Positions 1-23,839 are shown, counted from the stretch's first letter. The stretch is DNA of 64,000 nucleotides from a virus (IMGVR_UViG_3300033066_002031:3864-67863); one strand, 5' to 3'. A program made the numbers and translations. Notes: generated from the sequence alone by a model not told the origin.

Positions 1-1547
1 CCGAGGATCTCCTGATCATCGCGGCTTGGGCTCGCGACGCCAAGGAGGGTCTGCGAATCCGCTCGACGCCGCAGATCATGCTCGCCATCGCGGCTCACCA
101 CCCGAAGACGAAGCCGTACGTGGCTCGCTACGGCACGGCGATCATGACCCGCGCCGACGACGTCCTCCAGGTCTTCGGGGCTTACCGCGACCTGTTCCAG
201 CGGGGCGAGAAGCTGCTCCACAAGGGCAGCCTGCCGCACGGTCTCCGCAAGGCTCTGGCGTCCGCCCTGGCGTCCCAGTCGCTCTACGGTCTGCTGAAGT
301 ACGACGGCGCGAACCGTCCGAACTTCGCCGACGTGCTCAAGATCGTCTCGGGCGACGCCGCGATGAGGAAGTACGGGCGCCCCGACGGCTACCCGCTGTC
401 GAAGAGCGTCTACAACTATTTCGTCAAGGGCGTCGTGGACGAGAACGCGCCGCAGATCATCAAGGCTCGCAAGGCGTTCTTCGCCTCCAAGGACATCAAC
501 GCCGTCAGCCTGGAGACCCTGAAGGCGGCGGGGCTGACCTGGGAGAACGTGATCTCGCACCTCGGATCGTCGAAGCAGTCGTGGGAACTGGTGCTCCCGC
601 TGATGAACGAGCAGGCTCTGACCCGCAACCTGCGGAACTTCGAGCAGGCTGGCATCAGCGAGAAGTCGTGGGATCTGGTCTACGAGGGCTTGCAGAAGAG
701 CGAGGGCAGCGTCCAGTTGCCGTTCCAGTTCTTCCTCGCCCTGAAGGCGGTGACTTCGACCAACGCCAAGACCGCCGTCGGGATCTGCCTGGACCACTCC
801 TGTGCGTCCCTGCCGGACCTGGACGGCGTCACGACGGTGTTTGTGGACAACTCCGGCTCGTGCCAGTCGGCGAAGGTCAGCGAGATGGGCAGCGCCACCG
901 TGGCGGACGCGGGCAACGTCCTCGCCGCCGTCGTGGCGAAGCGGTACGGTCGCAGGGCTAAGGTCGCCGTCTTCGGCGACCGTGGCATCTGGGTCAACGC
1001 ATCGCACGCCGACTCCTGCCTCTCGATCCACGCCAGCGTCTCCCGAGCCGCGACGAGCGGCAGCGAGACGGACTACCAGATCCTGGGCGCGATGAAGGAC
1101 TGGCGGTGCGGCAAGGTCGGCGTCGGCGCCGCGACCGAGACCGGCTTGTGGCACCTGCTCAAGCACATGATCGACAACAAGATCATGACGGACCGCATCA
1201 TCCTGCTCAGCGATCTCTGCTGCTACACCCAGGGCGACGTGAATTGCAGCGTCGACATGCGAAAGATCCTCGGCATCCCGAATGCCTCGATACAGTCGCT
1301 CATCGACCTGTACCGCCGCCAGGTCAACAACAACCTCCGGGTCTACTCGATCAACCTCAATGGGCACGCCCAGGCTCAGACGAGGGACGACGGCAAGACC
1401 CACCTGATGTCGGGCTGGTCGGAGAAGGTGATCTCGCTCATCGCGGATCTTGAGGCTCCGGTCTCGCCCAACGTCAACACGCCGTCGGTTACGGCGCCGC
1501 CCGTCAAGACCATCGACGTCCTTCGCCAGAAGTATCGTCGGGTCTGA
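1..1547 (+). CDS. rsr: Ro60/TROVE-domain RNA-binding protein with C-terminal vWA domain (5'-truncated by window edge)
   Basis: Frame is open from base 3 (EDLLIIAAWARDAKEGLRIRSTPQIMLA...). It carries TROVE-like motifs (ALTRNLRNF, QLPFQFFLA) and a vWA MIDAS motif (VFVDNSGS ... IILLSD). Confidence 0.85.
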   Translation, partial: EDLLIIAAWARDAKEGLRIRSTPQIMLAIAAHHPKTKPYVARYGTAIMTRADDVLQVFGAYRDLFQRGEKLLHKGSLPHGLRKALASALASQSLYGLLKYDGANRPNFADVLKIVSGDAAMRKYGRPDGYPLSKSVYNYFVKGVVDENAPQIIKARKAFFASKDINAVSLETLKAAGLTWENVISHLGSSKQSWELVLPLMNEQALTRNLRNFEQAGISEKSWDLVYEGLQKSEGSVQLPFQFFLALKAVTSTNAKTAVGICLDHSCASLPDLDGVTTVFVDNSGSCQSAKVSEMGSATVADAGNVLAAVVAKRYGRRAKVAVFGDRGIWVNASHADSCLSIHASVSRAATSGSETDYQILGAMKDWRCGKVGVGAATETGLWHLLKHMIDNKIMTDRIILLSDLCCYTQGDVNCSVDMRKILGIPNASIQSLIDLYRRQVNNNLRVYSINLNGHAQAQTRDDGKTHLMSGWSEKVISLIADLEAPVSPNVNTPSVTAPPVKTIDVLRQKYRRV

Positions 1548-1566
1548 GGCGAACCAGGAATCGGGG

Positions 1567-1595
1567 AGCCCCGTCTATACGACGGGGCTTTTCTT
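1567..1595 (+). terminator. Rho-independent terminator after ro60
   Basis: AGCCCCGTC-TATAC-GACGGGGCT stem followed by TTTCTT. Confidence 0.8.
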
Positions 1596-1613
1596 GTGCA
1601 AACGGTGTTCGCC

Positions 1614-1763
1614 ATGACTCCTCCACTCCCTGATTCCGACGACGACTTTGCCGATTATCCGATCGGCATTTGCCGCCATTGCGACAAAGCGTTCTTGAAG
1701 ACGGAGTTCTTCCTGGAGTTTTGTTCATGGGACTGCGAGGAGCGTTGGCTCAGCGGAAACTGA
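1614..1763 (+). CDS. Small Cys-containing hypothetical protein (49 aa, below the ORF-track cut-off)
   Basis: ATG..TGA, MTPPLPDSDDDFADYPIGICRHCDKAFLKTEFFLEFCSWDCEERWLSGN; CxxC...CxxxC pattern. Confidence 0.45.
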   Translation: MTPPLPDSDDDFADYPIGICRHCDKAFLKTEFFLEFCSWDCEERWLSGN

Positions 1764-1783
1764 ATGGATTCGGTGGATTCGCC

Positions 1784-1993
1784 ATGCACAAGAAGTGCAA
1801 TCATTGTAGCGGCAAGGGCGTGGTCGCCGATACGCACCACTGCTATCGAGTGTTCAGCAAGTATCAAGACACCGGCTGGATTGAGCCCCAGGAGTTCCCG
1901 ACCCTGGATCTCGCGAGGCTGTACAAGGCGAGCAACGGCGACAACTCCCGCATGATGCAGATCGTCGATCCAAAAGGCTGCGTCGTCGATTGA
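1784..1993 (+). CDS. Small hypothetical protein with CxxCxGxG motif
   Basis: MHKKCNHCSGKGVV...; tight packing with neighbours. Confidence 0.5.
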   Translation: MHKKCNHCSGKGVVADTHHCYRVFSKYQDTGWIEPQEFPTLDLARLYKASNGDNSRMMQIVDPKGCVVD

Positions 1994-2002
1994 GAGGTTG
2001 AA

Positions 2003-2218
2003 ATGTCCACCATCGTGATGAAGTGCTCCTGCGACGGCTTCCTCGGCAACAAGGCTGCGGCTCGCTATCAAGACGCCCATAACGGCGCCGGGCTCCGGGT
2101 CCATAACAAGACGACCAAGGAGAATACCTTCCGCTGCACCGTATGCGGCACCGAACGGGGCGCGACGGGCGGAGAAGGCAAGAAGGATTCCAAGAAGGAC
2201 GCCAAGAAGAAGTCCTGA
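2003..2218 (+). CDS. Small putative Zn-ribbon protein
   Basis: CSC...HN...RCTVCG, basic C-terminus, GAGG RBS. Confidence 0.6.
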   Translation: MSTIVMKCSCDGFLGNKAAARYQDAHNGAGLRVHNKTTKENTFRCTVCGTERGATGGEGKKDSKKDAKKKS

Positions 2219-2311
2219 GCCGATCCACCGCATCTGAAGAACATGAGCGACCCGCTGTCCTATTGTCAAATTAGGATCAGCGGGTTTCTCATTTCCCCAA
2301 GGAAGGAACAG

Positions 2312-2674
2312 ATGCCGAACCCAACCAATTTCAACCTCGGCGACGCCATGTCGGTTTCCGGGACGACGGTCGGCGAGAACGTCTACTACGTCTTCCACGT
2401 CGACCGCGACGCCAAGTACACGATCGAGACCAAGGGCACGGCGAACGCCACCCTCGGGATCTGGGGTCCGTTCCCCGACGCATCGGCGGCTTCGCAGGGC
2501 GACCATCCGCCGTACGGCAGGGTCGCGGTCAACGGCGTCGCCAAGTGGGGCAGCCGCACCCTCGCCCCAGGCTACTACTGCCTCCGCGTCACGCTGAGCA
2601 CCAACGGCTCCTACGGCTTCAAGGTGCGTCCTTGGCAGTTCGCCGACTACATCATGACCAAGCTGCATTCATGA
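2312..2674 (+). CDS. Beta-sandwich protein resembling a pre-peptidase C-terminal (PPC) domain
   Basis: YYVF...YTIET.G...TLAPGYYCLRV pattern; AAGGAAGGA RBS. Confidence 0.5.
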   Translation: MPNPTNFNLGDAMSVSGTTVGENVYYVFHVDRDAKYTIETKGTANATLGIWGPFPDASAASQGDHPPYGRVAVNGVAKWGSRTLAPGYYCLRVTLSTNGSYGFKVRPWQFADYIMTKLHS

Positions 2675-2687
2675 CGGGAGGCTCGTC

Positions 2688-2984
2688 ATGGACGGCGACA
2701 TCAAGATCAAGCTGGCTAAATTCATCGAGGTTTCCGAAGCCAAGCAGGAGGAGATTCGGGCGGAATCCGACCGCGTCGCCACGCTCGGCGTGCGAGCCCA
2801 GGAGACGAGCCAGGTGGGGGATTACCTCTCCTACATCTTGTCGGTCTGCAATCTCCATGACAAGAAATTCCAGTTCGTCCTGGATCACGTCGGGTTCATG
2901 ACGCAGTTGTCCAACCTCCTGCTCGTCCACGTTACAGCCCTGCAAAGTCGGATTGACAACCTTGACGGCGACTGCGACGCCTGA
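2688..2984 (+). CDS. Hypothetical protein
   Basis: GGAGG RBS, 98-aa ORF. Confidence 0.6.
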   Translation: MDGDIKIKLAKFIEVSEAKQEEIRAESDRVATLGVRAQETSQVGDYLSYILSVCNLHDKKFQFVLDHVGFMTQLSNLLLVHVTALQSRIDNLDGDCDA

Positions 2985-2998
2985 TATAATCCCAAGGA

Positions 2999-3125
2999 GT
3001 CAGGAGGCGGAATCGAATGTGCGGGCTGCATTGCTCATAAATTTCCCCGCAAGGGGTTGACCACACAGTCGGTAGGATGCTGCCCTCATAAAGCAGAGAC
3101 GGCGGTTCGATTCCGCCTCCTGGCA
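2999..3125 (+). pseudogene. Chimeric tRNA-Met(CAT)-like element: tRNA 3' three-quarters preceded by a CRISPR-repeat-like hairpin and a 19-nt self-antisense segment
   Basis: D-loop AGTCGGTA, anticodon loop CTCATAA, T arm GGCGG-TTCGATT-CCGCC and acceptor 3' strand TCCTGGC are present. The 5' D-stem strand is missing, and 2999-3017 is complementary to the T loop/acceptor strand (3106-3124). Confidence 0.55.
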
Positions 3126-3139
3126 TTAAGGAGACGACG

Positions 3140-3493
3140 ATGACGCTCGACGATCTGAAGGCTGACATCGCCAGCGACATCCCGAGTGACGGGACGCCGC
3201 AGTTTGGGATCATACTGCTGATGGTGATCGGTGCGTTGGTCAGCGAAATCATCCACTGGATCTTCAAGCGGTACACCGACAAGCGGGAAGCCGCCGCCCA
3301 GTGCGTCGTCTACTTCCAGCACTTCGGTCCCATCAAGCGAGTTGCCCTGGTCGCCAGGGCTGTGGCGCTGAAGCATCGCTTCGGCGTCGTCTCGACGTCG
3401 AACGAGAAGATCGTCGATACCACCGTCGGGAAGCTCCGCACCTTGTCGGCGGACGACTTCCTGGCTCTCGCGAAGAACATCGGAGCGGCGTGA
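3140..3493 (+). CDS. Hypothetical protein with one hydrophobic segment
   Basis: AAGGAG RBS, 117 aa. Confidence 0.65.
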   Translation: MTLDDLKADIASDIPSDGTPQFGIILLMVIGALVSEIIHWIFKRYTDKREAAAQCVVYFQHFGPIKRVALVARAVALKHRFGVVSTSNEKIVDTTVGKLRTLSADDFLALAKNIGAA

Positions 3494-3590
3494 TGCAGAG
3501 GCATGGCGATGGCGTCGAGTCCGGTCTTGCAGCTTAACCCCAGGCGATCCATCGATCGTCGGCTGCAAGACGGGCTGGGGCGACCAAGAT

Positions 3591-3821
3591 GTGCAAAGAT
3601 TTCATTCGCAAGACGCTGAGAATGTCCGCAACCGTCGCAAGCGAGATTGGCTCCGTGGGGATCGATATGACAAAGATCCGCATCCCCACAACTGCAACAA
3701 GAAGCATCCATTCGACTGCGGCAATTCGAGGTGCGGCATCTGCTCCGAAGCCAAGCGTTACGGTCACGAACCGACGCGGCAGGAGATCCGCAGCCTGGAC
3801 GGCATGATGGATCAGATGTAA
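3591..3821 (+). CDS. Small basic Cys/His protein
   Basis: HPFDCGNSRCGICS...TRQEIR motif; start uncertain. Confidence 0.5.
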   Translation: MQRFHSQDAENVRNRRKRDWLRGDRYDKDPHPHNCNKKHPFDCGNSRCGICSEAKRYGHEPTRQEIRSLDGMMDQM

Positions 3822-3828
3822 CGGAAAT

Positions 3829-3919
3829 CGCCTGGTGGCTCGAATAGTTAGGCTCCGGTTTTACACACCGGCACACCGGCATAAACCGGTTCAAGTAGGT
3901 GCAAGTCCTACCCAGGCGA
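3829..3919 (+). tRNA. tRNA-Val(TAC)-like gene with long variable arm and atypical T loop
   Basis: Acceptor CGCCTGG/CCAGGCG+A; anticodon arm CCGGT-TTTACAC-ACCGG; V-arm ACCGG-CATAAA-CCGGT; T arm GTAGG-TGCAAGT-CCTAC. Confidence 0.7.
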
Positions 3920-3931
3920 CTTAAAAATACC

Positions 3932-3959
3932 TTGACAAACATTTTTGTCGGGGTATACT
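3932..3959 (+). promoter_or_regulatory. Sigma70-type promoter
   Basis: TTGACA-16 nt-TATACT upstream of tRNA-Thr. Confidence 0.65.
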
Positions 3960-3975
3960 ATTGGGCAGGGATAAT

Positions 3976-4046
3976 TCCCCGAAGGTGTTGCGGCAGCATT
4001 CCGCTTTGGTATGGCGGCGGACCGGGTTCGACTCCCGGTCGGGGAT
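3976..4046 (+). tRNA. tRNA-Thr(GGT), CCA not encoded
   Basis: Acceptor TCCCCGA/TCGGGGA; anticodon arm CCGCT-TTGGTAT-GGCGG; T arm CCGGG-TTCGACT-CCCGG. Confidence 0.75.
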
Positions 4047-4061
4047 CTTAGGACAACGATC

Positions 4062-4556
4062 ATGAGCCGATACAGATTTCTCGTCTCGTCCCGCGTCAAT
4101 GCCGAGGCGACGACCCGCACCGGCATCCAGGACTTCGACGGCAACGACGTCGACTACGCCGTGGTGTCGATCCGAGACCCCAAGGCTCCGGTTCCGAATC
4201 TGCATCGCTCTCCCAGGCTGATCAGCATCCTCTCGCTGGCGTTCCACGACGCCGACGACAAGTGCAACGACAAGCCGTATCAGTTGATGACCAACGCCGA
4301 CGCCAAGAAGGTGTACGACTTCGTCTCGACGATGATGAAGGGCGGCGTCGACACGTTCCTGATCCACTGCGAGCTTGGAATCTCCCGCTCGGCTGGCTGC
4401 GCCGCCGCGCTCAGCAGGATCTTCAACGGCGACGACAGCCGGTATTTCATGACGGGCGGTCCTTACGGCTCGTCGATGTACCGACCCAACATGTTCATCT
4501 ACCGCAAGGTGCTCGAAGCCGGTGGCTACTCCCTAAAGCCGATAGGAGCGGAGTAA
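4062..4556 (+). CDS. PTP/dual-specificity-phosphatase-like protein
   Basis: HCELGISRSAG = CX5R active-site loop; VVSIRDP N-terminal motif. Confidence 0.8.
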   Translation: MSRYRFLVSSRVNAEATTRTGIQDFDGNDVDYAVVSIRDPKAPVPNLHRSPRLISILSLAFHDADDKCNDKPYQLMTNADAKKVYDFVSTMMKGGVDTFLIHCELGISRSAGCAAALSRIFNGDDSRYFMTGGPYGSSMYRPNMFIYRKVLEAGGYSLKPIGAE

Positions 4557-4626
4557 GCGTCGCAAAAGGATTTGCGTTGACATGCGTCCTTTTCGATGAC
4601 TCATCCTCATTTGAGGCTACCTCCCC

Positions 4627-5130
4627 ATGAGCGTTCAGACTCGTCGCGGCATCATCTTCGCCAGCTTCTTCCCGACCGGTTTCCTCACACGCAAGTTCGT
4701 CTCGCCGCCCGAGAAGCCGTCCAACGCCTTCCCCGTCGCCTATGACCGCGACCGCTACAATCGCATCGTCGCGGACTTCGGCTTGATCAACGCTCCCGAG
4801 ACCGCCGTCTACGTCGTCGGCTCCTGGAAGGGGTGCAGCGACTCCAAAGACGCCATCGCGTGCGTCCTGCGGGAAGACGGGCGGTGGATGGGAGCCAGCA
4901 CCCATTTCCCCAGATTTGCGGAGATCCCGGAATACAAGGTCGCGGAGCAATTCCTGCCGAAAGGCTCCGACTGGTTCCTCTCCGAGCCGTCGATCCAGGC
5001 GTTCTCGCCGTATCACACCACATGGTTCCGCAAGGACGGCGGCGACATCCACATGACGCTCCTGACGGGAGCCGGAGCCTACTGCGAACTCGCCGACGCC
5101 GACCACTACTGGATGTACAAGACGTTCTGA
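4627..5130 (+). CDS. Hypothetical protein
   Basis: 167-aa ORF with coding-like composition, followed by a terminator-like hairpin (GCCCGCC/GGCGGGC + T tract). Confidence 0.6.
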   Translation: MSVQTRRGIIFASFFPTGFLTRKFVSPPEKPSNAFPVAYDRDRYNRIVADFGLINAPETAVYVVGSWKGCSDSKDAIACVLREDGRWMGASTHFPRFAEIPEYKVAEQFLPKGSDWFLSEPSIQAFSPYHTTWFRKDGGDIHMTLLTGAGAYCELADADHYWMYKTF

Positions 5131-5189
5131 TCTATTCGTCGGTATAGCCCGCCAAGGACAGGCGGGCTTTTTTCGCGAAAGGAATCGCC

Positions 5190-5609
5190 ATGACCAGGGA
5201 CTTGCTTGAACGGATCGGCTGGAACTTCGCCCAGATCGTCGGGAGGATCACCCTGGACCAGAACCAGGGCGCAATCCTCATCGGAGCTTACACCCTCGCC
5301 GCCATCGCCTTCCTCGGGCTGATCTGCGTCGTCGTCTACACGTCCCGCAAGACGCCGGAAGTGAAGCAGGACGTCGTCAATCTCGACGACACCCAGTACG
5401 TCGAGGAGTTTTTGTCCGAGAAGGCGTCGGAATTCATCACGCTCGCCAACCAGATCGAGCGGGGCGACATCGCCGTCTTCAACCACTGGGGCAAGCGGGT
5501 CAACTGCGAGTCGCTGGTCACGCAGTCCAGGGATCTCGCCGCCTGGCTCACGACGTCGGCTAACAAGTTCAGGTCGCTCCAGGGTCTCGTCGACGACGAG
5601 CAAGCCTGA
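5190..5609 (+). CDS. Hypothetical membrane-anchored protein
   Basis: One hydrophobic helix (ILIGAYTLAAIAFLGLICVVVY); AAGGAA RBS. Confidence 0.65.
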   Translation: MTRDLLERIGWNFAQIVGRITLDQNQGAILIGAYTLAAIAFLGLICVVVYTSRKTPEVKQDVVNLDDTQYVEEFLSEKASEFITLANQIERGDIAVFNHWGKRVNCESLVTQSRDLAAWLTTSANKFRSLQGLVDDEQA

Positions 5610-5610
5610 T

Positions 5611-6744
5611 ATGAGCGGCAAGACGTTCGCCGAGTTCTTCGCGGGCATCGGTCTCGTCCGCCTGGGTCTTGAACCCGGCGGATGGCGGTGCGTCTACGCC
5701 AACGACTTCGACGCCACGAAGCGTCGGTTCTACGAGGCGCAATTCGGGGAGGAAAATCATTTCCACCTCGAAGACGTCAACAACGTCGACGCCGTGGTCG
5801 ACCGCATCGACGAAGCTCCGTTCCTCGCGACGGCTTCGTTCCCATGCACCGACCTCAGCCTCGCGGGACGCTATGCCGGGCTTGACGGCAAGCATTCGTC
5901 GGCGTTCTACGCCTTCGCGTCCGTGCTCGAAAGGCTTGGCGACCGCAAGCCCCAGGTCGTGATGCTGGAAAACGTGCCGGGGCTCCTGTCGTCGCGCAAG
6001 GGCAAGGACTTCGAGTTCATCGCCCGCAAGCTCGCGGATCTCGGCTATTGGGTCGACGCCATGATCGTCGACGCCCGCCATTTCCTCCCGCAAAGCCGCC
6101 CCCGCGTCTTCATCTTCGGCATCCGGAATCCTCCTCCGTCCTGGCGAGGCGAAGACGGGAGATTCTTCCCTCCGAACAAAGCCATCTCGCGCGCCAAGAA
6201 AACGGTCGAACTTTCGACTGGCTGGCTCTACATCTCGGCGAAGTCCAAGAAGCGGAGCGACGTGCCGGAACTCCATGAACTCATCGACGTCTTCGACGAC
6301 GGCGACTGGACCGACGCGAAGATCGAATTGTCGGCGAGCCGCATCCCGGAACGGCACAAGGCGTGTCTTGACAAACTCTACGATCGTGGTACGATATGGG
6401 CTGGCACCGCGTTCCAGAGGACGCGGCACGGCAGGCAGGTCGTCGAGGTCCGGTTCGACGGTCTGGCGGGCTGTCTGAGGACTCCCAAGGGCGGAAACGG
6501 GCGGCAGATCGTCATCATCATCGAGTCGTCGAGAACGGCGATGCGTTGGATGAAGCCGATCGAGTACGCCAGGCTCCAGGGCGCCCCGGATTATCCGCTG
6601 GTTGGCTCGACGACGCAGCAGTTGTTCGCCTTCGCCGACGCCGTCTGCGTCCCCGTAATCAAATGGCTCGACGACAACATCCTGACGCCAGCTTACGAGT
6701 ATGCTTCCAAATATGCGGCTGTTCCTGGAATTCCGCCAGCCTGA
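5611..6744 (+). CDS. dcm: DNA (cytosine-5)-methyltransferase
   Basis: Motif I FAEFFAGIG, motif IV FPCTDLS, motif VI ENV, motif VIII QSRPRVF, motifs IX/X EYARLQG / ADAVCVP. Confidence 0.92.
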   Translation: MSGKTFAEFFAGIGLVRLGLEPGGWRCVYANDFDATKRRFYEAQFGEENHFHLEDVNNVDAVVDRIDEAPFLATASFPCTDLSLAGRYAGLDGKHSSAFYAFASVLERLGDRKPQVVMLENVPGLLSSRKGKDFEFIARKLADLGYWVDAMIVDARHFLPQSRPRVFIFGIRNPPPSWRGEDGRFFPPNKAISRAKKTVELSTGWLYISAKSKKRSDVPELHELIDVFDDGDWTDAKIELSASRIPERHKACLDKLYDRGTIWAGTAFQRTRHGRQVVEVRFDGLAGCLRTPKGGNGRQIVIIIESSRTAMRWMKPIEYARLQGAPDYPLVGSTTQQLFAFADAVCVPVIKWLDDNILTPAYEYASKYAAVPGIPPA

Positions 6745-7126
6745 CGTCTGGATCAATCGCTACGTCCTGGCACCGTACGCTCCGTTTCACGATTGGAACG
6801 AGCACATTTTCAAAGCCAGCACCCAGATCCCGATGGGGCAGTTGACGACGTGGAAGCCGCTCGATCCCTGGTACTACAGGCTCGGCACTATTCAAACCTA
6901 CGACCCCGGCGGCGACGTCTGCGAACGCCACGTCAGGGTGTTCCTGCCGATGATCGGCTTGCGGAAACCGATCGAAGGCGAGAAGAAGACCGGAAAACCA
7001 CCATTGACCTTGCTCCCCGGAAGTGAATACGGAATCGTGACTCTGTTCGCTCCGTGCGAGTTGATGGTGGGTGATGGACCAGAGACACATGATCCTCTAC
7101 GTGGGCGACATCCCGCTCAGGCTTAA
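6701..7126 (+). CDS. Hypothetical protein
   Basis: 141-aa ORF overlapping both neighbours. Confidence 0.45.
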   Translation: MLPNMRLFLEFRQPDVWINRYVLAPYAPFHDWNEHIFKASTQIPMGQLTTWKPLDPWYYRLGTIQTYDPGGDVCERHVRVFLPMIGLRKPIEGEKKTGKPPLTLLPGSEYGIVTLFAPCELMVGDGPETHDPLRGRHPAQA

Positions 7127-7724
7127 CGGCGCCGTCAACGACCGCGTCAACGAGCAGATCAATGATTTCGTCGCCGCCATGAGCGGACGCGATCAGTCGG
7201 CGGGGTATTACACGGACCGCCGACGCGCCCCCGCGTCCAAGGTCGCCGACGACATCGCGGTGGGGAAGAAAGCCGAGTTCTTCGCCCTCCTGGCTCTCTA
7301 CCGGCATTACGGCTTCCCGTCGGTCCCGGTCGACCTGGAGATACGGCGGGGCAAGAAGAAGGGATGGGCGACGGATCTCCCATTCGCCAGCGTCGACGCC
7401 CGCTTCCCCAACGCCCACGTCAAGGCGTGCAGCGACAAGACGATCTCGTTCTGCGGCGACTATAGCTGGACGTTCCAGATCGGCGACGCCAGGGGAACCA
7501 GCGGCATCGACGACATCTTCATGCGGGGCAACGACGATATCCTCGTCCTCGTCTACCTCGCCGACGCCGTTACGCCCGAAGCCGTCGTCAAAGCCATCAT
7601 CCCCTGGGATACGGCGCAACTCCACCTCGCCGACCCCCGCAAGGCGTCGCTCGTCGGGCTGAAGAAATGCCTCTACTACGCCGACCTCAAGGCAAATTTT
7701 GCGACGATGAAAACAACCGCTTGA
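7089..7724 (+). CDS. Hypothetical protein, possibly PD-(D/E)xK nuclease fold
   Basis: GKKAE...TDL...HVKA spacing resembles a PD-(D/E)xK core; not confirmed. Confidence 0.4.
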   Translation: MILYVGDIPLRLNGAVNDRVNEQINDFVAAMSGRDQSAGYYTDRRRAPASKVADDIAVGKKAEFFALLALYRHYGFPSVPVDLEIRRGKKKGWATDLPFASVDARFPNAHVKACSDKTISFCGDYSWTFQIGDARGTSGIDDIFMRGNDDILVLVYLADAVTPEAVVKAIIPWDTAQLHLADPRKASLVGLKKCLYYADLKANFATMKTTA

Positions 7725-7949: not shown

Positions 7950-8424
7950 GTCGCAACACTACAAACTCCGTCAGGAGTTGACCACGCATCCTTGCCTCCG
8001 ATGTAAATAGATAGGTTCTCGCGTCGCAACACTACAAACTCCGTCAGGAGTTGACCACTACATGGATCAGGACAGCGTCCGCGAGCCCGTCGGGGAGTCG
8101 CAACACTACAAACTCCGTCAGGAGTTGACCACTACATGGATCAGGACAGCGTCCGCGAGCCCGTCGGGGAGTCGCAACACTACAAACTCCGTCAGGAGTT
8201 GACCACGCTACCATGCAGCCCATCGATGCGAACGTGCCGATAACTGTCGCAACACTACAAACTCCGTCAGGAGTTGACCACTGGTGAACCGTGTTAGCAA
8301 GCTCTCCACAGTGGGCGTCGCAACACTACAAACTCCGTCAGGAGTTGACCACGAGTCGATCGTGACCGAGCCGCCGGAGCCGGTCAGGGTCGCAACACTA
8401 CAAACTCCGTCAGGAGTTGACCAC
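7950..8424 (+). CRISPR. CRISPR array: 7 identical 36-nt repeats GTCGCAACACTACAAACTCCGTCAGGAGTTGACCAC, 6 spacers (37, 38, 38, 39, 35, 36 nt)
   Basis: Repeats start at 7950, 8023, 8097, 8171, 8246, 8317, 8389; internal hairpin AACTCC-GTCA-GGAGTT; spacers 2 and 3 identical; no cas gene nearby. Confidence 0.97.
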
Positions 8425-8572
8425 CAACAAAACTGTTCCGCGCAAGGGGCTGTTCACAGCCGATGGAACTGTAACACTATTATCCCCTGCAAAGGGTTGA
8501 CCACAGTACGCACCACGGGCTTTCCGTGCTTTCGTCTGCAACACAAATAACCCCGCAAGGGGCTCGTCGTAC
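8425..8572 (+). repeat. Diverged repeat-like units trailing the array
   Basis: 8469-8504 CTGTAACACTATTATCCCCTGCAAAGGGTTGACCAC and 8534-8572 GTCTGCAACACAAATAACCCCGCAAGGGGCTCGTCGTAC keep the GYAACAC start and a hairpin, now with a GCAA loop; only the first keeps the GTTGACCAC end. Confidence 0.65.
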
Positions 8573-11134: not shown

Positions 11135-11208
11135 GGGGGTTGTGATGTAATTGGATAGCATCCCTGATTGTGCGTCAGGTCGTGCCGGTTCGAGTCCGGT
11201 CAAGCCTA
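11135..11208 (+). tRNA. tRNA-His(GTG), imperfect acceptor stem
   Basis: CCTGA-TTGTGCG-TCAGG; GCCGG-TTCGAGT-CCGGT; possible G-1; one G-G mismatch in the acceptor stem. Confidence 0.7.
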
Positions 11209-11209
11209 C

Positions 11210-12493
11210 TGGGTGTGTTTTGCATACAGACAATCAGAATTAGCAACATGAGAATTCACAAGAGCTTCAAAACTGAACTTGACCCAAACGATAAACAGCG
11301 GACGCTTTTCCTTAAAAATGCCGGAGTTGCCCGATTTGCCTACAATTGGGGCTTGCATCAAGCACAACAAGCTCAGGCGAATGGTCAAAAAAGACCTCGA
11401 TATTTTGAACTCAACCGTCGTCTGAATTTGCTTAAAAAAACAGAATTCCCATGGATGTACGAAGTGTCTAAGTGTGCTCCTCAGGGAGCTTTGCAGGATC
11501 TCGAAGAGGCGTTCAAAAGATTTTTCAAGAATTGCAATCTGAAAAATAAGGGTGGTTTCAAGAGCAAAAACGGTTTTCCCAGGTTCAAAAACAAAAAAAA
11601 CGGTGTTGGCGGCTTTCGACTGACAGGGTCTATCTATGTTTTTGCCGATGCGATCCAAATTCCCAAAATTGGCAAGGTGCGTCTGAAAGAGCGTGGCTAT
11701 ATTCCGACAGACGCTAAAATTCTCAATATTACCGTCACAGAGCGCGCTGGACGTTGGTTCGTCTCGGTGCTGATTGAAGCAGAACTGCCCGAGCCGTCTG
11801 CTAAGCCTGTTGCTGTTGCTGGCGTTGATCTTGGTATCAAAACGCTCGCGACCTGTAGCGACGGCGTGACGTTCCGGCACTCCAAGGCTTTGCAGGAAAG
11901 CCTCCAAAAACTCAGGCGGCTTAGCCGCCTTGTGTCACGCAAGAAGAAAGGCGGTGCCAACCGGAGGAAAGCCGTAGCCAAACTCGGGAAGCTTCACAAG
12001 CGGATTAGTGACATCCGGAACGACACGCTTCACAAGGTCACGACGCACCTGGCGAAAACCAAGTCGGTCGTCGTGATCGAAGACCTTAACGTCTCCGGCA
12101 TGCTCAAAAACCGTTGTCTCGCCAGAGCCATCAGCGATGTCGGGTTCGGCGAGTTCCGTCGTCAGATGGAGTACAAAGGCTCCTGGTACGGCTGCAAAGT
12201 CATCGTCGCTGATAGGTTTTTCCCGTCGTCGAAGATGTGCTGCAAGTGCGGCGAAGTCAAAATCGACCTATCTTTGTCAGAAAGGATCTTTGTTTGTGAA
12301 TGTGGCAATGTGATTGACCGCGATTTGAATGCCGCAATCAATCTTGAGCGATACTGTACCGCCGGTTCGGCGGGAATCTACGCCTGCGGAGAATCGGGCT
12401 CTGGGCTCGGCTCGCAAGAGTAGAGTGTAACCGGATTCGTTGAAGCAGGAAGCGGACTGCAAGCTACAACTTGCGTAAGTTCCGCAGAACAGG
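11210..12493 (+). mobile_element. Non-autonomous tnpB-only insertion element (ends approximate) with omega-RNA region at the right end
   Basis: No tnpA; visibly AT-richer than the flanks; right-end features GCCTGCGGAG..GAAGCAGGAA..AACTT-GCGT-AAGTT..GAACAGG. Confidence 0.6.
11248..12423 (+). CDS. tnpB: TnpB RNA-guided endonuclease (IS200/IS605 or IS607 type), RuvC intact
   Basis: HTH start KTELDPNDKQ..ARFAYNWGL; RuvC-I GVDLGIK, RuvC-II IEDLNV, Zn ribbon CCKCG..CECG, RuvC-III DRDLNAAINL. Confidence 0.93.
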   Translation: MRIHKSFKTELDPNDKQRTLFLKNAGVARFAYNWGLHQAQQAQANGQKRPRYFELNRRLNLLKKTEFPWMYEVSKCAPQGALQDLEEAFKRFFKNCNLKNKGGFKSKNGFPRFKNKKNGVGGFRLTGSIYVFADAIQIPKIGKVRLKERGYIPTDAKILNITVTERAGRWFVSVLIEAELPEPSAKPVAVAGVDLGIKTLATCSDGVTFRHSKALQESLQKLRRLSRLVSRKKKGGANRRKAVAKLGKLHKRISDIRNDTLHKVTTHLAKTKSVVVIEDLNVSGMLKNRCLARAISDVGFGEFRRQMEYKGSWYGCKVIVADRFFPSSKMCCKCGEVKIDLSLSERIFVCECGNVIDRDLNAAINLERYCTAGSAGIYACGESGSGLGSQE

Positions 12494-20949: not shown

Positions 20950-21345
20950 ATGCGTTTCCTAACGTGGCGAGAGCGGCTCGGTCGTCCCGAATGCCCTTAC
21001 ATGACGCGGTGGGCGATCAACTTCGGGCTGTTCTCGTTACGCATCCACCATTGGCATAGCTCCGACGACCACCGCTACTACCACGACCATCCCTGGTGGT
21101 TCGTAACATTGGTGCTCAAGGGCTCCTACACCGACGTCTCCGACGATGGTCGCGAGGCGATGACGCCCGGCTCGATCCGCTGTCGACCCGCCCTGCACCG
21201 CCACACCGTGGAGGTCGCGGACGGCGGCTGCTGGACCGTGCTGCTGACCGGCAAGGTCGTGCGGAGATGGGGCTTCTGGGTCAACGGCAAATTTAAAAAG
21301 ACGAACAAGTATTTTCTTGAGCACGGTCATCATCCGTGCAAGTAA
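20950..21345 (+). CDS. Cupin-fold protein
   Basis: HDHPWWFVTLVLKGSY...HRHTVE...WTVLLTG cupin motifs. Confidence 0.7.
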   Translation: MRFLTWRERLGRPECPYMTRWAINFGLFSLRIHHWHSSDDHRYYHDHPWWFVTLVLKGSYTDVSDDGREAMTPGSIRCRPALHRHTVEVADGGCWTVLLTGKVVRRWGFWVNGKFKKTNKYFLEHGHHPCK

Positions 21346-21346
21346 T

Positions 21347-21420
21347 GCCTCCGGAGTGTGTTGGTCAGCACGCAACGACTTCGAGCGTTGTAGTTCGGGT
21401 TCGAATCCCGACGGAGAGCA
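21347..21420 (+). tRNA. Atypical tRNA (TCG/Arg-like) with 8-nt anticodon loop and bulged acceptor stem
   Basis: GCCTCCG/CGGAGAGC; CAACG-ACTTCGAG-CGTTG; TCGGG-TTCGAAT-CCCGA. Confidence 0.6.
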
Positions 21421-21440
21421 ATCCGGGAATAGAGGTCAAA

Positions 21441-22031
21441 ATGATTTTCGAGTCGCACATCACCGTCGAAGGCGTTTCGCTGCCGCGATTCAAGGCGATG
21501 TGCCGCCAGGCAGACGTCAAGCCGGTGCATATCGTCAGCGACACGGGCTCCGGCGTCGAGCAGTTGATGTCGGCTCACTTCCATCATGTGCGGAGCTTCC
21601 CGCAGGCGTATGCCGAGATGGAGGATCTCTGCCGAACGTTCCATCCAGCCGTAGTCCGATCCAAGCTCGAATACATCCCGCGACCCAAGGACGTCGACCC
21701 GCCGACGATCTTCCTGTACGAAGAATGGCATTTCAAGTTCGAGGTGGCGTTCGACTACGTCGAGACGCTGCGGAATCTCGCCGCATCGGCGGGATTCAAG
21801 ACCTCGATCAACGCCGTGCGGCAGCCCCAGGATTCCGAGACGATGTTCGTCTTCGCCACCACGAGGAGCCGCGAGTCGAGCGAATCATTTCGCGATTCGC
21901 TGTTCGGCGTCGAGACGCTTTACTGGAAGCCGATCAACTCGATCCACGAATGCGTGGTGTATGACTCCAATCCTGGGGTCGACCGCTACTGGTTTTGCGA
22001 CTGCCCGTTGAAATCCACCGATCGGATCTGA
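21441..22031 (+). CDS. Hypothetical protein
   Basis: GAGG RBS; followed by terminator ACCGCCG/CGGCGGT + T tract (~22058-22086). Confidence 0.65.
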   Translation: MIFESHITVEGVSLPRFKAMCRQADVKPVHIVSDTGSGVEQLMSAHFHHVRSFPQAYAEMEDLCRTFHPAVVRSKLEYIPRPKDVDPPTIFLYEEWHFKFEVAFDYVETLRNLAASAGFKTSINAVRQPQDSETMFVFATTRSRESSESFRDSLFGVETLYWKPINSIHECVVYDSNPGVDRYWFCDCPLKSTDRI

Positions 22032-23797: not shown

Positions 23798-23839
23798 AAA
23801 AAAGCGACCCCGGCGATGATCTGCCGGGGTCGCTTTTTT
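23798..23839. terminator. Bidirectional terminator at the arm junction
   Basis: A6-GCGACCCCGGC-GATGATCT-GCCGGGGTCGC-T6. Confidence 0.9.

Follow-up and report, generated by a model that had tools for sequence, protein, structure and literature searches.

The locus analyzed here belongs to a sewage-type phage of about 68 kb with a GC content of 61%. The stretch of 64,000 nucleotides under study, hereafter the window, corresponds to bases 3864-67863 of a linear 67,863-bp IMG/VR virus record with an estimated completeness of 88%. Capsid, portal, protease, terminase, and tape-measure genes identify a tailed phage. Its accessory arm on the + strand contains a TROVE/Ro60 gene, a C5 methyltransferase gene, eleven tRNA genes, a tmRNA gene, and a CRISPR array. 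The TROVE-domain (Ro60) protein is encoded at 78-1547 (E = 2e-17), 1.4 kb upstream of the chimeric unit. No cas gene was found in the ORFs scanned in the 67.9-kb record, including 4.2 kb outside the window, and the missing part of this 88%-complete record could hold one. No adjoining gene is recognizable as an anti-CRISPR gene. Megablast of positions 1-6000 revealed no close relatives in public phage records, and IMG/VR scans with ORF117 and with Ro60 found no relatives either.

Several other features of this phage deserve a record. The start of the contig, outside the window, encodes a class-V aminotransferase, a cysteine-desulfurase-like gene (L034:386-1582, Pfam E = 7.7e-88), and an AbiEi-like antitoxin-type protein is encoded at 21336-22031, directly after a tRNA-Ser gene (PADLOC, E = 8.7e-25). 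The tRNA-Val(UAC) gene at 3829-3920 has an extra 20-nt hairpin in the variable region. Both sister lineages introduced below have a 75-nt tRNA-Val, from which the window tRNA-Val differs in the acceptor and T arms; thus, the gene looks replaced rather than being the same gene with an insert.

The chimeric locus (2962-3493) and the related CRISPR array have the following parts, where types A and B are two sister lineages:

2962-2990, + strand: sigma-70-type promoter, TTGACG-17 nt-TATAAT with TG before the -10 element, 11/12 matches
2999-3017, + strand: 5' arm of a 19-bp helix (the 'antisense leader'), GTCAGGAGGCGGAATCGAA, pairing with 3106-3124
3018-3042, + strand: fast-diverged spacer segment from leader to repeat, about 60% identity to type B
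3043-3064, + strand: solitary CRISPR repeat unit (3' part), with 22/22 identity to the type A array repeat at its positions 15-36; it consists of TT, the hairpin CCCC-GCAA-GGGG (3045-3056), and the 8-nt handle TTGACCAC (3057-3064)
3065-3066, + strand: junction dinucleotide AC, defined by the alignment and raw sequences against type B
3067-3125, + strand: tRNA-CAU remnant, positions 14-73 (Rfam tRNA, 25.5 bits), with D loop 3067-3074, D-stem 3' strand 3075-3078, anticodon arm 3080-3096 (CAT 3087-3089), T arm 3101-3117, acceptor 3' strand 3118-3124, and discriminator A 3125
3106-3124, + strand: 3' arm of the helix, TTCGATTCCGCCTCCTGGC, formed by the T loop, T-stem 3' strand, and acceptor 3' strand
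3140-3493, + strand: ORF117, a small protein with a hydrophobic stretch; GGAG at 3130-3133, 6 nt past the helix
7950-8570, + strand: the phage's cas-less CRISPR array, with the repeat family of the solitary unit

The anatomy proposed in a preliminary description of this DNA, a 3' part of tRNA-Met combined with a CRISPR-repeat hairpin and an antisense leader, is present in the sequence in all its parts. From the promoter match, transcription is predicted to start at about 2997-2998, 1-2 nt before the leader arm. The promoter is common to the three lineages, being identical in type B and reading TTGACG-17-TATGAT in type A. The repeat unit is intergenic and lies 55 nt downstream of this promoter. 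There is no + strand terminator between the unit and helix and ORF117; hence ORF117 is probably co-transcribed, and the unit may be an mRNA leader only. Within the fast-diverged segment 3018-3042, the 8-mer CTCATAAA recurs in the anticodon loop. A 7-codon mini-ORF (ATG TGC GGG CTG CAT TGC TCA TAA) is observed at 3017-3040, with GGAGG 9 nt upstream; both this GGAGG and the start codon are inside the 19-bp helix, and the mini-ORF is absent from type B.

The sister loci were found via close homologues of ORF117, P0001 (96%) and P0002 (75%), whose contigs were compared with the window. Samples in which the sisters occur include ERR2607589 (PRJEB27054) and SRR34691368. Three lineages could thus be compared: the window, type A (L020, L021), and type B (L022-L027). 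In type A (75% ORF117 protein identity), the promoter is followed by a 36-aa hydrophobic small ORF, 5 nt, an intact tRNA-Met(CAU) gene that is called by ARAGORN, and ORF117, with no lone repeat. In type B (96% identity), the promoter is followed by the leader GTCGGCAGGCGGAATCGAA, a diverged stretch, the lone repeat TTTCCCCGCAAGGGGTTGACCAC, 21 nt GAAGAACAAGAAGTAACGACC equivalent to the last part of the small ORF of type A, and finally the whole tRNA. The window is equivalent to type B in which 34 nt after the handle, comprising the 21 native nt and tRNA positions 1-13, are swapped for AC. The lone repeat unit is identical in the window and type B. Other, distant homologues of ORF117 lack a tRNA or an intergenic region upstream, and therefore no further lineage could be drawn from them.

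Thus, the locus derives from a phage tRNA-CAU gene, of which a remnant is left; the 3' 22 nt of the CRISPR repeat of this clade were acquired in its 5' leader. In the window, a later event replaced 34 nt past the handle by AC, joining the handle to the D loop and destroying the tRNA. Type A, as the outgroup, polarizes the changes: the deletion arose in the window lineage, and an extra G in the tRNA arose in that of type B. For the lone repeat and the loss of the small ORF, the simplest explanation is a gain before type B and the window diverged, in their common ancestor. As for the junction, which the preliminary description suggested seeking in relatives, the lone repeat is found again in type B, and the fusion of handle to D loop occurs in the window and in neither type A nor type B.

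Against the Rfam tRNA model, 3068-3125 reaches 25.5 bits where the gathering score is 29, no D arm is aligned, and ARAGORN makes no tRNA call there; the intact homologues score 55.9 bits in type A and 52.3 bits in type B. The presence of a whole tRNA at the same place in the sisters demonstrates that the window retains positions 14-73. The repeat handle occupies the place of positions 1-13, that is, the acceptor 5' strand, nucleotides 8-9, and the D-stem 5' strand, in agreement with the earlier proposal that the repeat sits where the 5' D-stem strand should be. With these positions missing, the window has no complete cloverleaf and, accordingly, no functional tRNA at this place. The tRNA of type B (L022:3709-3781) has an 8-nt anticodon loop CUGCAUAA with an extra G, and ARAGORN reads its anticodon as 'gcat'; this tRNA is either decaying or possibly quadruplet-reading. 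An intron or insert splitting the tRNA between positions 7 and 8, to be spliced by Cas6 and a ligase, was rejected because in comparison with the sisters the 5' part is simply deleted.

The repeat unit itself is unambiguous. The sequence CCCCGCAAGGGGTTGACCAC at 3045-3064 is not expected to occur in shuffled sequences. It matches the trailing array unit 8485-8504 at 18/20 positions, and its hairpin is the same as that at 8551-8562, as anticipated by the preliminary description, in which the hairpin and 3' end were a copy of the variant repeats 5.4 kb away. The closest counterpart is the canonical repeat of type A, since all 22 nt of the lone unit (3043-3064) are identical to its positions 15-36 (44.1 bits). 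The match to the window's own canonical repeat is limited to 9 contiguous nt. The 8-nt end TTGACCAC is common to the lone unit and all seven canonical repeats of the window; on the + strand it is found in these repeats, one trailing unit, the lone unit, once in a gene, and nowhere else.

The window array starts with seven identical 36-nt repeats GTCGCAACACTACAAA-CTCC-GTCA-GGAG-TTGACCAC (7950-8424), followed by degenerate trailing units up to 8570 that keep the older hairpin of the CCCC/CCCT-GCAA type. Its spacers 2 and 3 (8059-8096, 8133-8170) are identical, evidently as a result of the duplication of one repeat-spacer unit. The type A array (L020:7233-7912), also cas-less, contains six canonical repeats GTCGCAACACTAAGTT-CCCC-GCAA-GGGG-TTGACCAC and four trailing units, 59-61 nt apart, in which the hairpin and the TTGTCCAC or TTGCCACA end are kept and the 5' half is scrambled. 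The type B contig of P0004 stops before any array, so that the array comparison covers the window and type A. Across the arrays, the hairpin stem covaries (CTCC/GGAG, CCCC/GGGG, CCCT/AGGG), and the 8-nt end is constant or one base off. The retention of hairpin and handle in the trailing units looks like that of a conserved or selected core, and this is exactly what the lone unit holds. The lone unit is thus a genuine 3' part of a CRISPR repeat, a hairpin with its 8-nt handle. Cas6-processed class 1 repeats, and likewise Cas13a repeats, have a small hairpin that is separated from the spacer by 8 nt. The lone unit has the older hairpin CCCC-GCAA-GGGG, and the seven active repeats of the window have CTCC-GTCA-GGAG; because of this difference, the present partner protein may no longer recognize the lone unit.

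The unit is solitary, as the next hairpin/handle unit is at 7950, and BLAST of five repeat variants against 2900-3250 hits this site only. Its 44.1 bits exceed the cut-off of 41.1 bits used by SRUFinder, and its coverage places it in the 'partial match' class, which comprises 50-90% coverage (PMC10651486). It is not a mini-CRISPR array, since there is no second hairpin/handle unit downstream.

Directly upstream of the array, at 7071-7724, both lineages encode a conserved 217-aa protein. Assignment of this gene as Cas6 was rejected: it has no family match, and its 26 homologues on large phage contigs adjoin DNA methyltransferase and glycosyltransferase genes and not arrays. The TnpB-type gene at 11170-12423 is matched by the PADLOC Cas12u4 and Cas12f models (E = 8.6e-86). 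It was rejected as an effector of the array because its 3' flank has no repeat and the TnpB-type gene of type B (L022:1778-2872) is a different element elsewhere. As the two TnpB proteins are 29% identical and the genes occupy different sites, they represent separate insertion sequences in sister phages.

No matching host array was found in GTDB genomes, JGI metagenomes, IMG/VR, PLSDB, and INPHARED, and blastn of the repeat against plasmids and phages gave no match. A scan of GTDB genomes for the hairpin-handle pattern returned ten single matches, mostly in genes and close to the estimated chance number; the only match in JGI metagenomes is a Solibacteraceae locus also found in GTDB, and the only one in IMG/VR is in an unrelated phage (L009, IMGVR_UViG_3300033072_000552). 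In this phage, the exact 20-mer CCCCGCAAGGGGTTGACCAC occurs once (L009:6314-6333), in an intergenic position directly before an intrinsic terminator. In the acidobacterial metagenome-assembled genome (Solibacteraceae; L013:3739-3758, L028:411-430), it occurs once in a non-coding stretch. Both 20-mers may be due to chance or may be independent lone units of the same repeat family. A cognate array elsewhere would be recognized by GTCGCAACAC...CCCCGCAAGGGGTTGACCAC or by the CTCC-GTCA-GGAG variant.

The other prominent element of the locus is the long helix that encloses the repeat unit. Segments 2999-3017 and 3106-3124 form 18 Watson-Crick pairs and one G-U pair with no mismatch, including a perfect 17-nt core (3001-3017 with 3106-3122). 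The complementarity of the leader to the T loop and acceptor 3' strand, with a single G-U, is therefore as described before, except that the arm ends at 3124, since 3125 is the discriminator A. In the whole 64 kb there are two perfect inverted repeats of at least 17 nt within 250 nt, the other one being the terminator at 23798-23839. Folding, proposed earlier as a check, bears out the structure: segment 2990-3135 has a minimum free energy of -67.8 kcal/mol (z = -5.3), and 0 of 200 shuffled sequences fold as well. In all predicted folds, the hairpin 3045-3056 is free of the rest of the RNA. The long helix is predicted to be more stable than a cloverleaf-like fold with the leader as the 5' strand, by 18 kcal/mol in the window and by 12 kcal/mol in type B.

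The helix can be compared across the three lineages. The leader corresponds by homology to the part of type A in which the 36-aa small ORF, still intact there, has its ribosome-binding site and start. Over a 12-nt core, the type A sequence forms 8 Watson-Crick pairs, one G-U pair, and 3 mismatches with its own T arm, and type B and the window pair at 12/12 positions. When all 19 nt are counted, type B forms 16 Watson-Crick pairs and two G-U pairs and has one mismatch. Two leader changes are specific to the window, G to A and C to G, which convert a G-U pair into A-U and a C x C mismatch into G-C. Because types A and B agree at both sites, these changes are derived in the window. According to simulation, the probability that two random substitutions both improve the helix is about 0.002. 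Better pairing thus arose where the 5' acceptor strand of the tRNA itself was lost, in the window lineage. Two causes would each explain the perfected pairing, selection on an RNA helix or template-switch mutation of imperfect repeats. The preliminary description held that an intact tRNA-Met without a repeat-like segment in relatives would point to a chance inverted duplication. The outcome of this test was divided: such an arrangement does exist in type A, but in type B the repeat and the leader coexist with the intact tRNA, and therefore the structure is not a chance inverted duplication.

The rate of change in this element differs from that of its surroundings. The window and type B diverge by 4.0% in ORF117 and 2.4% in ORF98, and lineage-specific changes in the 354 nt of ORF117 are balanced, with six in the window and five in type B. 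The element of about 130 nt accumulated at least 10 derived changes in the window lineage, compared with one in type B and about two expected (1.7% in ORF117). They include two changes in the leader, about six changes plus indels in 3018-3042, the deletion, and one change in the D stem. None of the window-lineage changes fell within the 22-nt repeat part, and the adjacent 25 nt were hit by many. Judged from these alignments, the burst of changes is consistent with a repair scar or with relaxed constraint. That the hairpin was spared is suggestive, with a divergence too small to be statistically decisive: since the flanks differ by only 2-4%, the conservation of these 22 nt from type B to the window counts for little.

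Type B matches type A again (14/14) from the base that directly follows the handle, and the preceding 8 nt are unrelated. The solitary unit was probably captured from a CRISPR array. Capture could have occurred by recombination between an array spacer, in a host or a rival phage, and the matching phage sequence. A random array fragment is expected to bring a foreign spacer along, and the exact transition from repeat to native sequence fits recombination between spacer and protospacer. The second lesion, in the window, begins at the same junction and removes 32-34 nt, and the array spacers are 35-39 nt long; the shared junction and the near-spacer size suggest that capture may have been followed by a second deletion mediated by an array or by repair. 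Thus, recombination of a spacer with its target would explain both the exact junction in type B and the roughly spacer-sized loss in the window. Such recombination of phages with CRISPR loci has been documented (Varble et al., 2019; Watson et al., 2018; both as cited in PMC8616872). Comparison of the spacers of both arrays with all loci compared revealed no protospacer, and none of the spacers equals the proposed captured protospacers. The capture model predicts the existence of spacers GAAGAACAAGAAGT... and (A/T)CAGTCGGTAGG... in some host or rival-phage array, and lone repeats would be expected to adjoin native sequence in every case.

A more elaborate scenario can be built on this model, and we regard it as unlikely in its entirety. 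A targeted phage would have escaped CRISPR by recombining with the targeting array, taking the hairpin and handle at the protospacer edge, so that the target became a self-marked pseudo-spacer. A second event of the same kind would have removed a spacer-sized piece, and the product would have been reused as a Cas-released guide or decoy on a dead tRNA, with the 19-bp helix holding the cleavage halves together. If true, solitary repeat units in phage tRNA regions would be fossils of CRISPR hits turned into weapons.

Among the three readings offered in the preliminary description, the solitary repeat unit fits best, being an exact 22-nt copy that is solitary, intergenic, and promoter-proximal. 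As to its role, we tentatively prefer a crRNA mimic with which the ORF117 transcript begins, either a decoy or a sibling-directed guide; this reading is the first in our ranking and still falls short of being probable. It is followed by a neutral scar, a helix of the 5' untranslated region, a Y RNA or switch, and, finally, CAST homing or an attP site. In a host with a cognate repeat-processing Cas protein, the exposed hairpin would be bound and the RNA cut. The product would start with the handle UUGACCAC followed by the D-loop and anticodon-arm sequence, that is, it would mimic a crRNA. Such an RNA could occupy Cas proteins as a Racr-like decoy, or it could work as a one-guide mini-array against sibling phages that retain the whole tRNA gene. 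The 19-bp helix would keep the tRNA remnant from adopting the tRNA fold and give the RNA a paired 5' end. Compared with the type B tRNA gene, the would-be guide aligns over 39 of 40 positions, with one mismatch (position 1) and one gap; compared with type A, it has many mismatches.

The alternative that survives best is a neutral scar, in which leftovers of recombination and deletion persist in a dispensable tRNA locus and the RNA is the 5' leader of ORF117, with no Cas-related activity. We consider it a substantial possibility, placed below the crRNA mimic. Independent disabling lesions are present in both unit-bearing lineages, the 8-nt anticodon loop with its extra G in type B and the deletion in the window, which fits simple decay. 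The excess of derived changes in the window lineage, the dissimilarity of the lone hairpin to the current repeats of the phage, the lack of a cognate system in the databases scanned, and the distant ORF117 homologues without an upstream tRNA or intergenic region point in the same direction. However, the hairpin and handle were spared by the changes that struck the adjacent 25 nt, and they are the part retained when the trailing repeats of the arrays decay. Both leader substitutions led to better pairing, with the low probability given above, and the unit is directly past a strong and conserved promoter.

The helix could also be the functional element on its own. A terminal helix of 19-20 bp would guard the ORF117 mRNA from decay at the 5' end or serve as an RNase III site, replacing tRNA processing, and the hairpin would be incidental. 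The placement of the helix agrees with such a role, as it begins 1-2 nt past the predicted start and ends 6 nt before the GGAG of ORF117; so do its advantage of 18 kcal/mol over the cloverleaf-like fold, its improvement where the tRNA 5' strand was lost, and the weaker version already present in type B. Nevertheless, this explanation accounts neither for the presence of the repeat unit nor for its exact preservation, and templated mutation could yield the same helix. We find it improbable as the sole explanation, and it is compatible with the crRNA-mimic reading rather than exclusive of it.

Much less probable is an RNA that partners the Ro60/TROVE protein as Y RNAs do, or a conformational switch that mimics a tRNA. 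In bacteria, YrlA RNAs have a terminal stem joined to a tRNA-like domain, and the locus, with its long terminal helix, tRNA-derived parts, and TROVE-domain gene upstream, has some resemblance to them. But in 2400-4400 no match to a Y RNA family was obtained at E<=10, the parts follow one another as in an ordinary 5'-truncated tRNA and not as in a permuted YrlA, pairing in the helix occupies the T arm, which a tRNA mimic would require, the sisters hold an ordinary tRNA gene at the locus, and the leader stems from a small ORF. The earlier suggestion of such an RNA near ro60 is accordingly not supported.

Phage attP sites often copy 3' parts of tRNAs. The preliminary description had also read the locus as a repeat with a tRNA 'spacer', which is literally true of the anatomy in that tRNA sequence directly follows the handle; still, its extension to a tRNA-gene homing guide, by analogy with the delocalized atypical-repeat crRNAs that guide CAST homing beside tRNA genes (PMC11656645), or to an attP-type fragment for integration, is the least credible of all readings, as neither a Tn7-type transposase nor an integrase was found in the scanned ORFs of the 67.9-kb phage record, the TnpB genes of the window and type B are separate insertion sequences at different places, and the tRNA fragment is the phage's own gene, intact in sisters, and not a copy of a host attachment site.

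The crRNA-mimic reading has to be viewed against the known phage-encoded repeats. Solitary repeat units downstream of promoters, Racrs, and sibling-directed mini-arrays have been described (PMC10651486, PMC8616872, PMC11656645), and phage solitary CRISPR repeats are known as RNA anti-CRISPRs whose origin is not established. In the literature library searched, we found no paper describing a solitary repeat unit built into or linked to a tRNA gene. The locus captures three natural stages: an intact tRNA, a captured repeat with the whole tRNA, and a handle fused to a truncated tRNA. Because each stage has an exact junction of repeat and native sequence, an origin by spacer-target recombination is directly testable. 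The locus also provides a small defined RNA for asking whether it acts as a decoy, as a guide against sibling phages, or not at all. Finally, it shows a clade of mid-sized phages of about 68 kb that carry cas-less arrays, with the hairpin re-coded by compensatory changes.

The closest counterparts are the solitary repeat units and Racrs (Faure et al., 2019, as cited in PMC8616872; Camara-Wilpert et al., 2023, PMC10651486), with which the lone unit shares a single repeat-like unit in a phage intergenic region, past a predicted promoter, with no cas gene nearby and the hairpin kept. It differs in that only the 3' 61% of the repeat is held, the unit is joined directly to a truncated tRNA inside a 19-bp helix, an ORF and not a terminator comes next, and the same phage has a seven-repeat array. 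Cracrs, crRNA-like regulatory RNAs of phages (bioRxiv 10.1101/2024.10.29.618823), are likewise phage-encoded, and a crRNA-like RNA from the lone unit would similarly load on host Cas proteins; the difference is that Cracr guides aim at host cas or toxin promoters. The delocalized or atypical crRNAs of CAST elements near tRNA genes (PMC11656645) also show an atypical repeat outside an array followed by tRNA-related sequence; here, in contrast, the element is a phage with no transposon machinery, and the tRNA gene belongs to it. [quoted passage not shown] Unlike in these arrays, the 'spacer' of the lone unit has no second repeat after it, is the phage's own adjacent sequence rather than an acquired one, and matches the sister locus imperfectly.
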